DNA of 64,000 bases from Candidatus Eubacterium faecipullorum. Its GTDB lineage: Bacteria > Bacillota > Clostridia > Oscillospirales > Acutalibacteraceae. The DNA is taken from NCBI GenBank assembly GCA_019114085.1, contig DXGE01000024.1, forward strand, positions 4,227-68,226. The letters are read 5' to 3'. Shown one piece after another: positions 5,238 through 60,377 of this stretch (position 1 is the stretch's first letter; each line of letters opens with the position of its first letter). A program made the translations under genes and the position numbers. Below the pieces are notes generated by a model. That model saw nothing but the letters and a program-made list of their open reading frames with translations, had not been told where the DNA came from and ran no database searches.

Positions 5238-6605
5238 CTATTTAAAATACTGCACTGCGTTTGCAAAGATGGATTCGTTTGCAAAGCGCGCTCCTATGCC
5301 GCTGCCCTTTTTTGTTTCCATTTTCAGCCCGGCAGGCGCGTATCCCTGCGGTATTTCTGCCTTAAAGGTGATCGTCTTGCCGCTCAAAAGTGCGTTCTTG
5401 TTATAGTTTTTAAAGGGTACCTCAATCTCTTTGCCGCTTTTGTCCCTGAATACCGCCGCAAAATAATCAAATGTCAGCGGCGGAGCAAAGCCGTAGTTTG
5501 TAAGCCCGAAAAACAGTTCGTTTCCCGTTGTATAAAGGTCTTTAACGGCAAGCTGGTAGCCAAGGTGGTATCTCAGAATATCAAATACGCTCAGCTTGAT
5601 TTCGCCGCCGTTTGCGTCTTTGAAAAGCGCGGGGTTGGCGCTTATTTTGTGCTTTACACAATCCGCGTAGCTCAGGTATACGCTTTTCCATTTTTCCATG
5701 CTGTATTGTTTTCCGTCGTCCTCCCGGTAATTGTGCTCCAGAGAAAAGGTGGTCAAAAAATACGCCTGCACCTGCTTGAGCACTGCAATGCCGTCAAAAT
5801 CATCGCAGTGCCCCTTGCTCTTTTTATCGTCCAAATAGGCTCTGCCCCACGGCATCTCGCCGTCGTTTACGGTAAATCGGGCGTGGTTGAGCACTTTGGT
5901 ATAGCGCTTTTTCTGCGTGCTTTTTACAAACGCCCACTTATGCGCCGTGTTTCCGGTAATATAATCGTCATGGATTCCCACCTGTGCAGCGTATTCGGCG
6001 GGTATTTTCCTGAGCATGGAATATGTCCTTACCTGGCTGTAGATCCCGGCGGGTGCCAGGCGGCAAACATCGCCGATAACGTCCTTTACGTGCCTGCGCT
6101 TGAACTTTTTATAAGAATGCCCCTCGCCCCAGAACCCTATGATGCCCGTCTGCATGCAAAAAAGCACTTTTTCAATCAGGCGTTCGTTTTCGGCAAACCA
6201 TTTTTTCAACTGCGTCAGGTGCACCTGCGCCGTTTCATACGGCACGTCGGGCTGGGATTCGGTTGCATACGCAAACCGTAAAAGCAGTCTTATGCCGTGC
6301 TTTTCAAACAGCTTAAAAAATTTCTCAAGCTGCGCAAACGCAAGTCCGTCAAGCTGTTTTGAAGCGTAATCGCAAAGGTAAACATATGCCTGAAAAACAG
6401 TGGGGGAGTCGGCCGCGTATTTTTCGATCAGTCTTTCGGCGCGCGTATAAGGCTCCTCATTATCACCGGGGTACGCGCGCAGGTTTTCCCCTAAGGTGAT
6501 ATACGTTTCCCCACGCAGCCCCCTGTTCGGGTTTTTCAGCAGAAAGCCGGCGCTGTCAAAGCAGACTTCCGGCATATCGATATCGTATGTAACAGCGTTA
6601 CTCAT
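5238..6605 (-). CDS. putative glycoside-hydrolase-like protein (DUF4874/DUF4832-like)
   Basis: A 455-aa ORF with an AGAGGAGAA RBS. The NPNRGLRGE motif near the N-terminus and the overall length resemble DUF4874+DUF4832 proteins. The assignment is from memory of the family, not a search. Confidence 0.55.
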   Translation of the reverse strand: MSNAVTYDIDMPEVCFDSAGFLLKNPNRGLRGETYITLGENLRAYPGDNEEPYTRAERLIEKYAADSPTVFQAYVYLCDYASKQLDGLAFAQLEKFFKLFEKHGIRLLLRFAYATESQPDVPYETAQVHLTQLKKWFAENERLIEKVLFCMQTGIIGFWGEGHSYKKFKRRHVKDVIGDVCRLAPAGIYSQVRTYSMLRKIPAEYAAQVGIHDDYITGNTAHKWAFVKSTQKKRYTKVLNHARFTVNDGEMPWGRAYLDDKKSKGHCDDFDGIAVLKQVQAYFLTTFSLEHNYREDDGKQYSMEKWKSVYLSYADCVKHKISANPALFKDANGGEIKLSVFDILRYHLGYQLAVKDLYTTGNELFFGLTNYGFAPPLTFDYFAAVFRDKSGKEIEVPFKNYNKNALLSGKTITFKAEIPQGYAPAGLKMETKKGSGIGARFANESIFANAVQYFK

Positions 6606-6694: not shown

Positions 6695-6860
6695 GGCTCC
6701 CCCATTTCGGGGTCCCCAAAAAGCCCAAGGCTTTTTGGGGAAAGGAGAATTTGACGAAGCAGTTTAGAAACGGCGGTTGCAAGGATTTAAAATAGCTGTT
6801 TCGCCCATGCGAAGTCAAATTGGACGCGGGGAGCTGTCGGCAAAGCTGACTGAGGGTTAT
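6695..6860 (+). repeat. structured intergenic repeat element, family 1, copy 1
   Basis: It aligns end to end with 59565-59731 in the same orientation and shares nested helices with that copy. See findings. Confidence 0.8.
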
Positions 6861-6931
6861 AAAAAACATATAAGAAGTTTCATAAGCATCCGCAAAAACT
6901 CGCCCGCAAGTTCAAGTCTTGTTAGGATAAT

Positions 6932-6969: not shown

Positions 6970-7045
6970 TGGTCGGAGTGACAAGACTTGAACTTGCGGC
7001 CCCCAGACCCCCAGTCTGGTGCGCTACCACCTGCGCTACACCCCG
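6970..7045 (-). tRNA. tRNA-Pro, anticodon GGG
   Basis: The reverse complement CGGGGTGTAGCGCAGGTGGTAGCGCACCAGACTGGGGGTCTGGGGGCCGCAAGTTCAAGTCTTGTCACTCCGACCA folds as a 76-nt cloverleaf. It has a 7-bp acceptor, GCGC D-stem, CCAGA/TCTGG anticodon stem with loop CTGGGGG, a TTCAAGT T-loop and an encoded CCA. Confidence 0.95.
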
Positions 7046-34271: not shown

Positions 34272-34309
34272 ATCATGTCGGCGAGCGCGCAAGTGCGAGC
34301 CGGGATGAT
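34272..34309 (+). promoter_or_regulatory. 38-nt leader hairpin with GNRA loop and tandem G-A internal loop
   Basis: The sequence is AUCAU-G-UCGGC-GA-GCGC-GCAA-GUGC-GA-GCCGG-G-AUGAU. It is symmetric with a GCAA tetraloop. Confidence 0.5.
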
Positions 34310-34367
34310 ACAATGTTCTCCGAAATAATCCAAATCTTTGATTTGGCTATTATTTCGAGAGGTTATT
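34309..34367 (+). repeat. leader hairpin unit 1 (tandem duplicate, 100-nt period)
   Basis: The 59 nt are nearly identical to 34409-34467. They form a long imperfect hairpin around CCAAAUC-UUU-GAUUUGG. Confidence 0.8.
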
Positions 34368-34408
34368 ATACCGCAAGCGTAAGGCAAGAATTGTCGCCGG
34401 ACGTGTGG

Positions 34409-34467
34409 TACAATGTTCTCCGAAATAATCCAAATCTTTGATTTGGTCATTGTTTTGAGAGGTTATT
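34409..34467 (+). repeat. leader hairpin unit 2, ends 19 nt before the SBP start codon
   Basis: See unit 1. It is followed by UUAUUUUACU and the AAAAGGAG RBS. Confidence 0.8.
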
Positions 34468-34485
34468 TTACTAAAAGGAGAAGAA

Positions 34486-42734: not shown

Positions 42735-43673
<939 letters not shown>

Positions 43674-43869: not shown

Positions 43870-44071
43870 ATACGGGCGTGTGGAGATTGCTATATTATAA
43901 TATATGTAATATGCATGCTCCACCATGATATGCGATGATGCCGGAGGTGGCGCCTTACCCAAGGGCGGGAATTTCGGCGGAGTATGTCCGATTTTAAACC
44001 GGGCGAAATTATACTGAATGTCATTCCTTATGTGCAGATAGCTTGCGTATGTCTGCTCCGCACAAAGGTTG

Positions 44072-59564: not shown

Positions 59565-59731
59565 GGTTCCCACATCGGGGTCCCCGAAAAGCCGCAAGGC
59601 TTTTTGGGGAAAGGAGAATTTGACGAAGCAGTTCAGAAACGGCGATTGCAGGGATTTAAAACAGCCGTTTCGACTGGTGTGAAGTCAAATTCAACGCGGG
59701 GAGCTGGCAGCTTCGCTGCCTGAGGGGTTGT
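59565..59731 (+). repeat. structured intergenic repeat element, family 1, copy 2
   Basis: It aligns with 6695-6860 and has the same helices with wobble-compatible differences. Confidence 0.8.
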
Positions 59732-59904
59732 AGAAATGCAGCGTTGTTTTAACAAAAACGTCCTGCAACAATCCCTCCGTCATTGCTTACGCAATGCCAC
59801 CGGCTGCGCTACCCTTTTGTCGCTGCGCAACATTTCCCCTGGCAGGGGAATCTTCTTTGCACAAGGGAGGCTTAATTGTAGCCATAACGCTGTTGATAGA
59901 AACG

Positions 59905-59952
59905 GCTCCCCTGTGCAAGGGGAGCTGTCAACGGAGTTGACTGAGGGGTTGT
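59905..59952 (+). repeat. family 1 minimal module (closing stem plus terminal hairpin only)
   Basis: GCUCCCC-UGUGCAA-GGGGAGC-U-GUCAAC-GGA-GUUGAC-UGAGGGGUUGU. Confidence 0.7.
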
Positions 59953-59968
59953 TATACAAAATTACTAA

Positions 59969-60000
59969 ACAAAAAAGAGCAGCCTTTTTCAAGACTGCTC
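59969..60000 (-). terminator. intrinsic terminator on the minus strand
   Basis: The minus strand reads GAGCAG, a 12-nt loop, CTGCTC, then T7. Confidence 0.6.
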
Positions 60001-60321
60001 ATCAAGGTATACTTCTTAGTTGTTTTTGACTTGGAAGATTACCACTCAACTGTCCAATCAATTTATCGGCATGTCATCTCGCCACGCTGACGGCAATGCT
60101 TTAACTTATTTTATAATCAATATTCGTCAGGACCGCCCATTTGTCCATACAGGAAATAAACCTTCAAACATTTTTCTCCTGTCCAGCTGTTTGTGGTCTG
60201 TTCCACATATACGTTATAGCCATTTCTGGTAGTTCCATTATACCACCAAAGAGAATCTTGAATTCCTTGTTTTATATCACTTACTGAATCATCCAAATAA
60301 ATCTCTTTTTTTATTTATCTA

Positions 60322-60350
60322 TTGAAAAAAAGGCGTTTATCATGTAAAAT
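60322..60350 (+). promoter_or_regulatory. sigma-A-like promoter for the pur operon
   Basis: TTGAAA, a 17-nt spacer, then TAAAAT, 28 nt upstream of the purE ATG. Confidence 0.55.
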
Positions 60351-60377
60351 AATACATTATAAAAGGAGGAACGGCTC

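Follow-up and report, generated by a model that had tools for sequence, protein, structure and literature searches.

A probable lineage-specific long form of a mobile, REP-like hairpin repeat in Candidatus Eubacterium faecipullorum

An element of about 166 nt occurs twice in a 64,000-nt stretch of Candidatus Eubacterium faecipullorum DNA (GenBank contig DXGE01000024.1, positions 4,227 to 68,226; hereafter the window), once between a DUF4874/DUF4832 gene and tRNA-Pro (copy 1) and once behind rplQ (copy 2). We consider it probable that this element is a lineage-specific long form of a mobile hairpin repeat resembling the repetitive extragenic palindromes (REPs), and a mobile REP-like DNA repeat is our best reading in preference to a dedicated RNA gene. 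The element is modular in its anatomy, restricted to one lineage, polymorphic by gain or loss among strains at the rplQ site and biased towards one strand in its helices. An earlier note, made from the sequence alone, had argued for selection on a + strand transcript; that the element is a free-standing novel RNA gene is not supported, since the ends of the element are a repeat present in at least 120 genome loci and 53 viral loci and the rplQ copy is polymorphic.

The long form and its copies

The two copies are colinear end to end on the same strand, as the earlier note had stated, and their flanks are unrelated and do not align. Identity between them is 84 % over 253 columns with the unrelated flanks included and 88 % over 95 gap-free nt, and the element proper has a mean column identity of 91 % across four copies. 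The neighbours of copy 1 are both on the minus strand: the DUF4874/DUF4832 gene (5238-6605), whose start faces the element, and tRNA-Pro (6970-7045). Copy 2 lies 3' of the rplQ terminator and 5' of purE (Table 1).

The closing stem of the element, its 3' hairpin and its tail UGAGGGGUU together make up a 47-nt interspersed repeat that we call the module. Its parts follow each other in the order hairpin 1 (GCTCCCC/GGGGAGC), TG, hairpin 2 (6 bp, usually closed by C-G around a GNA triloop) and tail TGAGGGGTT. A bare module, in which the closing stem surrounds a 7-nt loop and is followed by the terminal hairpin and tail, stands in the window at 59904-59952, and its 5' arm (59904-59911) is the same as that of copy 1 (6695-6703). 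This is the repeat that had been counted as a third copy of the element: the repeat exists, but only as a 49-nt bare module without the insert. A partner motif ('B-type') of the form AACCCCTCCG-hairpin-CACCTCCCCT-loop-AGGGGAGG fills window positions 59732-59903 and also accompanies modules in phage and Deinococcus loci. Its last hairpin (TTCCCCTGGCAGGGGAA, then a T-rich run, 59834-59850) resembles a + strand terminator. The module tail (CTGAGGGGTTGTAG) is complementary to the partner head (CTACAACCCCTCCG) in the window (59721-59790), in the loci that we number L014 and L047 and in Deinococcus loci, and the pair of module (A) and partner (B) can therefore form a long-range stem.

The long form is a module whose hairpin 1 loop holds a nested insert of about 125 nt. 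A 19-mer internal to this insert, GGGGAAAGGAGAATTTGAC, was found in none of the viral contigs and had true matches in only two assemblies of the metagenome collection, both of this lineage. Besides orthologues of copies 1 and 2, these assemblies contain a third locus, copy 3 (L061, L063), so that the long form is known at three loci of one lineage, with five distinct full-length sequences in all the data fetched. The lineage is Candidatus Eubacterium faecipullorum, the name under which NCBI lists identical RplQ, RpoA and DUF4832 proteins. Copy 3 in L063 shares the B-to-A architecture of window 59832-59952 and has the insert in hairpin 1 besides; since the same partner hairpin and spacer precede copy 3 and the module at 59904, the two loci differ essentially by the roughly 125 nt in the hairpin 1 loop. 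An intermediate form is carried by L183, a rabbit-gut metagenome-assembled genome (MAG), which reads GGCGCCCC-TCGGGGTCCCCACAAAAA..TTTTTGTGGGG-TGGTGTA-GGGGAGC and has the first inner hairpin only. Unrelated inserts occupy the same position of hairpin 1 in L102, L105 and L258. The idea that the insert is an independent element was tried with blastn-short against all loci and dropped, as it returned only chance 19-mer matches and partial forms in L183 and L093.

Among strains with identical RplQ the rplQ-purE spacer ranges in length from 504 to 1668 nt. The site is empty in L192, L194, L198 and L200, holds a single bare module in L193, the hairpin 2 of which equals that of copy 2, and holds the long composite as in the window in L195-L197 and L199. 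Copy 2 is missing from the sister species (Clostridium sp. CAG:678 / Ca. Eubacterium faecale), whose spacer measures 108-148 nt in 10/10 contigs. The spacer also harbours a variably decayed minus-strand open reading frame (ORF), of low complexity and lipoprotein-like (window 59953-60377, L192-L200). Copy 1 is present even where the rplQ site is empty (L247, same scaffold as L192) and where it holds the bare module (L250, same scaffold as L193). The copies have also traded parts: the copy 3 orthologues of L061 and L063 differ only by a swapped hairpin 2 (GGCAGC-TAT-GCTGCC versus GGCAC-GAA-GTGCC), and the 5' arm of the copy 1 allele of L247 is longer by 30 nt, a block similar to the left flank of copy 2. 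Logan short-read contigs end inside the element, as expected of a repeat.

The module in genomes and phages and its DUF559 neighbours

We searched for the module with a pattern, GGGGAGCTG-N13-CTGAGGGGTT, that covers its 3' half, specifies 19 bases and leaves the inner hairpin unconstrained; because the pattern fixes the 3' arm and the tail, only statistics on hairpin 2 are unbiased. The window has three matches where 0.23 would be expected by chance. Species-representative genomes supplied the genome loci mentioned above, and the viral loci come from IMG/VR contigs with 98 matches, which are not independent as many come from related phages. Across the loci fetched there are 186 distinct instances, and the 5' arm lies 3-7 nt upstream in nearly every one. 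Among the matches listed, the hosts are mostly Oscillospiraceae, Ruminococcus and other Clostridia MAGs, with further matches in the Negativicutes (Pectinatus, Megasphaera, Phascolarctobacterium, Schwartzia) and in at least seven Deinococcus species, there always with a CCTCCCC..GGGAGG partner hairpin; D. radiodurans is not among the matches listed. Copies occur solo, in tandem or in mosaics with the partner motif, and predicted ORFs contain only 11 of the 126 genome instances. The module is in these respects, like REPs, an extragenic, multicopy palindrome that is solitary or clustered.

The phage loci L047, L014, L017, L022 and L030 (for example IMGVR_UViG_3300032167_004945) carry P22-type coat, scaffold and terminase genes. 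More than 25 modules fill intergenic gaps of the same phage, up to 17 per array, all in one orientation and antisense to the genes.

One subfamily of small DUF559 genes is physically tied to the module, the tie being one of association. DUF559 is a Vsr-like PD-(D/E)XK endonuclease domain. In a Pfam scan of 150 module-flanking ORFs from genome loci it was the most frequent family, with four members (from Ruminococcus, Phascolarctobacterium and two Clostridia MAGs), and tblastn added a fifth gene, in Deinococcus phoenicis; Y1_Tnp was absent from the 25 most-matched families of these ORFs. A module, the gene and an inverted module follow each other in L074, L092 and L262, and in the first two of these the gene encodes 120 aa and its stop codon directly adjoins the inverted module. 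The gene of L074 (Ruminococcus sp. CAG:563) occupies 1577-1945. In L135 and L118 the start codon is closely preceded by the module tail, and in L146 inverted modules flank the DUF559 gene on both sides.

The association was also found when starting from the protein. A search returned 2660 homologues, and 5/5 of the bacterial contexts fetched have modules no further than about 60 nt from the gene. Of the nine phage-borne homologues that are closest (at least 48 % identity), about five have adjoining modules, and none of the phage-borne homologues below 40 % identity does. One DUF559 clade, whose members are 64-96 % identical, is accompanied by a variant of the module in which the arms are compensated (GCTCCCT/AGGGAGC) and the tail reads GAGGGAG. 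The nearest solved structure to the DUF559 protein is 3hrl (E = 1e-13), and Vsr as well as the homing endonuclease of a group I intron belong to the same PD-(D/E)XK clade as DUF559 (PMC3424549). Full-text searches of a limited collection of papers found none that ties DUF559 to dispersed repeats.

The repeat breaks assemblies, and in the annotation of gut metagenomes it leads to spurious ORFs and to proteins with extended N- and C-termini. Thus the DUF559 protein calls P0013, P0017, P0019, P0028, P0054, P0074, P0077 and P0101 have N- or C-terminal extensions that are translated modules (e.g. GELSAKLTEG), which means that the repeat contaminates the protein annotation of gut metagenomes. The possibility that the insert of the long form is a decayed DUF559 gene was also considered and rejected, as blastx gave no similarity; its sole match, of 15 aa, is to call P0028, whose N-terminus is translated from the upstream module.

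Table 1 Positions and composition of the long-form copies, the bare module and its partner in the window, and locations of DUF559 genes with modules in other loci
Feature	Position	Strand	Remarks
Long-form element, copy 1	6695-6860	+	alignment and fold; carried by every strain examined
Copy 1, 5' arm of module hairpin 1 (GGCTCCCCC)	6695-6703	+	pairs with 6828-6834
Copy 1, nested insert, about 125 nt, in hairpin 1 loop	6704-6827	+	fold and consensus fold
Insert, 12-bp hairpin	6714-6740		
Insert, Shine-Dalgarno (SD)-like AAAGGAGAA			
Insert, helix AAUUUGAC/GUCAAAUU			encloses GAAACGGC/GCUGUUUC
Copy 1, module 3' half	6828-6858	+	GGGGAGC arm, hairpin 2, tail TGAGGGTT; pattern match and repeat family
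Copy 1, hairpin 2	6836-6850	+	GTCGGC-AAA-GCTGAC
Long-form element, copy 2	59565-59731	+	alignment and fold; after rplQ terminator; polymorphic among strains
Copy 2, 5' arm	59565-59572		
Copy 2, GGGGAGC arm	59698-59704		
Copy 2, hairpin 2	59706-59720		
Copy 2, tail	59721-59731		
Mosaic spacer of 'B-type' partner hairpins	59732-59903	+	includes AATCCCTCCGTCATTGC..GCAATGCC and TTCCCCTGGCAGGGGAA
Bare module, 47-49 nt	59904-59952	+	GGCTCCCC-TGTGCAA-GGGGAGC TG TCAAC-GGA-GTTGA CTGAGGGGTTGT
DUF559 genes of about 120 aa directly bracketed by modules, often an inverted pair	L074 1400-2150; L092 100-800; L135 4000-4750		
DUF559 genes bracketed by modules, further loci	L218, L228, L235, L240, L243, L262		
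DUF559 P0045, P0034	spacer hsdS-hsdR		
DUF559 P0043	spacer purH-purD		1-5 tandem modules, varying by sample
DUF559 P0056, P0120	other spacers		

The folding strand and the explanations for it

On the + strand copy 1 folds with a minimum free energy (MFE) of −69.7 kcal/mol and copy 2 with −72.0 kcal/mol (z = −5.1 and −4.5 versus shuffles). The MFE fold of copy 1 holds every helix that the earlier note had listed: GCUCCCC 6696-6702 with GGGGAGC 6828-6834, the hairpin of 12-13 bp at 6714-6740, AAUUUGAC/GUCAAAUU, GAAACGGC/GCUGUUUC and the terminal 6-bp hairpin 6836-6850. The + strand of copy 2 forms these helices too. A consensus fold of four copies (RNAalifold) has 47 pairs. The seven one-sided pair changes all remain G-U or U-G on the + strand, which bears out the claim that differences inside helices keep pairing on that strand; besides these, one pair of the terminal hairpin is doubly compensated and two helix cells are unpaired, one C.A and one G.G. 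Five distinct sequences with seven one-sided G-U changes and one compensatory pair are too few for covariation statistics of the R-scape type. In four independent assemblies an A>C breaks one pair of the 12-bp hairpin and is not compensated. No named RNA family accounts for the fold, in agreement with the earlier note: Rfam 15 has no family that matches copy 1 or copy 2, whether the cut-off is the gathering score or E = 10, and gave no match on 14 module-rich loci. BLAST of the element found no match in phages and a sole plasmid match of 29 nt, which corresponds to the module 3' half in a Deinococcus aetherius plasmid, and a literature search by sequence string returned irrelevant human-gene matches only.

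The earlier note had read the + strand bias as a sign of selection on a transcript. This step does not hold, as the asymmetry persists when DNA parameters are used: the − strand folds 9-15 kcal/mol worse than the + strand with RNA parameters, and with DNA parameters the two long copies give −33.8 versus −28.7 and −38.4 versus −32.9 kcal/mol for the + and − strands. G.T is moreover the best-tolerated mismatch in single-stranded DNA. Hairpin 2 can be examined across the whole family, where five free pairs in 186 instances make 930 pair cells; 891 of them are Watson-Crick, with heavy covariation at two positions, and G.T occurs in 11 cells on the + strand and in 2 on the − strand. Its loop is GNA in 151/186 instances (GAA 79, GCA 44, GTA 25), the bare module of the window has a GGA loop (59927-59941), and the closing pair is C-G in 181/186. 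The d(GC-GNA-GC) mini-hairpin is known for its exceptional stability as DNA and its strong dependence on the C-G closing pair (PMC13037366, PMC3201870), and such mini-hairpins were first noticed at phage origins (PMC13037366). Taken together, the tolerance of G.T, the DNA-type triloop and the result with DNA parameters indicate that the asymmetry shows which strand folds rather than that the folding molecule is RNA. Across the family it is the + strand that folds, and the data point to single-stranded DNA at least as much as to RNA. The most economical reading of the asymmetry, in our view, is that a single DNA strand, or perhaps a transcript, folds.

The orientation of modules relative to genes was judged from crude ORF calls: of the modules in bacterial genomes, 60 share the strand of the genes around them and 65 do not, which amounts to no bias, and the four classes of flanking-gene arrangement are about equally common. 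In scans with the module pattern, orientation was uniform among the modules of any one locus. Of the long copies, copy 1 is antisense to the gene on either side, copy 2 is sense and lies between two terminators, and copy 3 lies in a convergent spacer behind a terminator. The three long copies share no conserved promoter, having only weak, non-conserved promoter-like sites; with no conserved promoter and with a locus that is empty in some strains and in the sister species, the element does not look like an independent small RNA gene.

An alternative that we consider unlikely is that the element is a structured non-coding RNA of the + strand, either a 3' untranslated region or read-through small RNA or a cis-acting stabiliser, to which the module would supply the closing stem and the 3' hairpin. 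The strong + strand fold, the exclusive G-U outcome of the one-sided changes and the better conservation of stems than loops are all compatible with such an RNA, as are the GNRA loops on the 12-bp hairpin in copies 2 and 3 (GCAA and GUAA), the fixation of copy 1 across strains and the location of copies 2 and 3 downstream of same-strand genes and ahead of terminator-like hairpins. Against it stand the lack of a conserved promoter, the antisense position of copy 1, the dispensability of copy 2 within the species and its absence from the sister species, the small number of loci and sequences in a single lineage, the identical asymmetry with DNA folding parameters and the uncompensated A>C that segregates in the longest helix. 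Whatever supports the RNA explanation supports the DNA explanation as well, and the former is weakened by copy 2 being dispensable.

Three other explanations carry much less weight with us. A replication signal in single-stranded DNA, akin to the sso/ssi sites at which priming occurs on rolling-circle plasmids and phages, and working in one orientation only, would fit the strand-specific structure, the GC-GNA-GC mini-hairpins of the family (PMC13037366), the orientation shared within any locus and the arrays in every intergenic gap of one phage. It is nevertheless improbable, given that module orientation does not correlate with local gene direction in bacterial genomes and that a chromosomal site present in some strains and absent from others is hard to reconcile with such a role. 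In Firmicutes the direction of genes serves as a proxy for the direction of replication. More improbable still is that copy 1 acts on the − strand as a promoter or 5' leader of the DUF4874/DUF4832 gene, that is, as a cis-regulatory insertion. The only − strand promoter-like site of that gene does lie inside the element (TTGACT-18-TATTTT, 6818-6789), and many phage modules are found 20-60 nt upstream of a ribosome-binding site and ATG on the opposite strand; yet copies 2 and 3 have only degraded versions of the hexamers, copy 2 has a + strand gene on either side and the helix asymmetry favours the other strand. We give hardly any credence to the micro-ORF of 14-20 codons, starting from UUG at 6751 behind AAAGGAGAA, that the earlier note had kept as a weak alternative. 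The SD-like motif and the UUG exist and are identical in all copies, but they are only 3 nt apart, the frame has 14, 20 and 14 codons in the three copies and the peptide is not conserved among the paralogues, most copy differences altering the amino acid (F/I, G/D, C/Y, K/R, K/E) and one turning a stop into Gln. The region is conserved because of the helix AAUUUGAC/GUCAAAUU, and the micro-ORF was rejected.

Several observations weigh against the mobile, REP-like repeat that we favour. The empty, bare-module and composite alleles of the rplQ site show neither a target-site duplication nor a sharp insertion boundary. Copy 1 is in every strain seen, and no empty site for it was found among the strains examined. 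Conservation in the long form is about three times better in stems than in loops; selection on a functional RNA would produce the same contrast between stems and loops as well as the fixation of copy 1. The two long copies of the window have hairpin 2 loops of AAA and TTC rather than GNA. Modules in viral contigs are antisense to genes in 48 cases and sense in 9 (of 57), counts that are inflated by related phages. Finally, no DUF559 gene was found in the window or in the other fetched contigs of the lineage, nor was a DUF559 remnant found in the window, and we know of no nuclease activity, cleavage site or transposition intermediate for DUF559 on modules.

On the explanation by a mobile DNA repeat, solo, tandem and mosaic modules would have spread through the intergenic DNA of Clostridia, Negativicutes, Deinococcus and phages, and one module in the Candidatus Eubacterium faecipullorum lineage would have gained a self-folding cassette of about 125 nt in its hairpin 1 loop, yielding the composite that may then have reached its present three loci. 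The hairpins would matter when the + strand exists as single-stranded or extruded DNA. By analogy with RAYT on REPs, or with a homing endonuclease on its site, the DUF559 nuclease would act in trans on modules, and such action may spread and reshuffle them; a small Vsr-like nuclease is, by this analogy, probably what drives the spread and reshuffling of the repeat in trans. The long form itself may have no dedicated cellular function beyond incidental effects on neighbouring transcripts.

Known systems, other features of the window and significance

The closest likeness is to REPs, bacterial interspersed mosaic elements (BIMEs) and the REPtrons of Proteobacteria, in which the nuclease is RAYT (TnpA_REP). 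Like these, the module is a short extragenic multicopy hairpin repeat that occurs solo, in tandem and in mosaics, flanks a small single-gene nuclease as inverted copies and varies with the nuclease clade. There are also differences. In REPs a guide tetranucleotide, GT[AG]G, precedes the hairpin foot by 0-2 nt on the 5' side (PMC6006769), whereas the module has no GTAG or GTGG at the hairpin foot on either strand and the bases 5' of hairpin 1 are variable (..aaaGGCTCCCC, ..cttGGCTCCCC). The gene that accompanies the module is a PD-(D/E)XK Vsr-like DUF559 gene and not an HUH-Y1 transposase. REPs are species-specific (PMC6006769), while the module is near-identical across phyla and phages, the same 19 specified bases recurring in Clostridia, Negativicutes, Deinococcus and phages.

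A match to the terminus of a known insertion sequence (IS) or miniature inverted-repeat transposable element (MITE) was among the results that the earlier note had said would count against its claim. The ends of the element come near to this, being a MITE-like interspersed repeat, though not a named one, and the terminal inverted repeats with target-site duplication that characterize MITEs are not found at the rplQ site. BOX, RUP and SPRITE of Streptococcus pneumoniae, bcr1 of Bacillus cereus and the Correia elements of Neisseria are modular structured intergenic repeats of 100-200 nt, whose sub-modules vary in number and some of which are co-transcribed with neighbours; the repeat described here is likewise modular. 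These families are genus-restricted, and IS transposases are believed to move them by way of terminal inverted repeats and target duplications; neither feature is seen at module sites, and to our knowledge they have no sequence similarity to the module. An IS200/IS605-derived PATE has similar sub-terminal hairpins at its two ends, a TnpA nearby and an orientation bias with replication. Module hairpins 1 and 2, by contrast, are unrelated in sequence, no TnpA was found among the neighbours of modules, and there is no bias relative to gene direction as a proxy for replication.

The mosaic small non-coding repeats (SNRs) of D. radiodurans, compared by description only, are also small, mosaic, non-coding intergenic repeats. 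D. geothermalis is reported to lack them, and no link between SNRs and a nuclease has been described (PMC1978522). Homing endonucleases of the Vsr/DUF559 fold, both free-standing and intron-borne (I-Bth0305I, PDB 3r3p) provide a parallel for tiny DUF559 genes (about 120 aa) that stand alone in the spacers of conserved operons, and DUF559 falls in the PD-(D/E)XK clade together with this proven homing endonuclease (PMC3424549); homing endonuclease genes, in turn, are not known to be bracketed by a far more numerous dispersed hairpin repeat. Hairpin 2 of the module is mostly of the GC-GNA-GC type with a nearly invariant closing C-G and so agrees, for the family, with the mini-hairpin DNA d(GCGNAGC), which is a structural motif and not a genetic element; the long copies of the window (AAA, TTC) depart from it.

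It is conceivable, and we offer this only as a tentative and rather doubtful extension, that the module and DUF559 form an undescribed REPtron-like mobile system across Clostridia, Negativicutes, Deinococcus and phages, with a PD-(D/E)XK nuclease in place of the HUH transposase. The 125-nt cassette might then be a structured passenger targeted to the hairpin 1 loop and functional as single-stranded DNA or RNA.

Other features of the window are recorded here in their own right. Between 6862 and 6999 the 3' half of tRNA-Pro is repeated in inverted form (6904-6925) across a bidirectional terminator, and a 46-nt inverted repeat is formed with the tRNA's own 3' end. In other strains a unit of about 150 nt, with the tRNA-Pro 3' terminus at its end, is present in 2-3 tandem copies, followed in L247 and L248 by a phage-type integrase gene; repeats and integrase together suggest that an integrative element has left att-site remnants there. 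At 42828-43280 an extended run of 9-nt periodic repeats (GGN NNN NNN) is typical of collagen-like Gly-X-Y coding. A 58-nt inverted repeat (25698-25755/35434-35491) with 84 % complementary arms 9.7 kb apart could bound an invertible or mobile segment, or could be two copies of a leader. Direct repeats of 66 nt, 91 % identical and 100 nt apart, lie at 34306-34371 and 34406-34471, each with an internal palindrome (AAATAATCCAAATCTTTGATTTGG). The ribosomal protein operon is headed by an S10-Clostridia ribosomal protein leader (43926-44006; Rfam RF03136, 36.4 bits), in keeping with an origin of the window in the Clostridia.

The evidence places the element among the selfish hairpin repeats that shape intergenic DNA and not in a new class of structured RNA. 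It also carries a caution for similar cases, in that a helix asymmetry made up of G-U pairs only identifies the folding strand and not the type of nucleic acid. Unlike classical REPs, the repeat family is common almost base for base to distant phyla and phages, and its module is physically tied to tiny Vsr-like endonucleases (DUF559) that are nearly unstudied. If this link is functional, it would give DUF559 a role and would provide a second enzymology for the spread of REP-type repeats.

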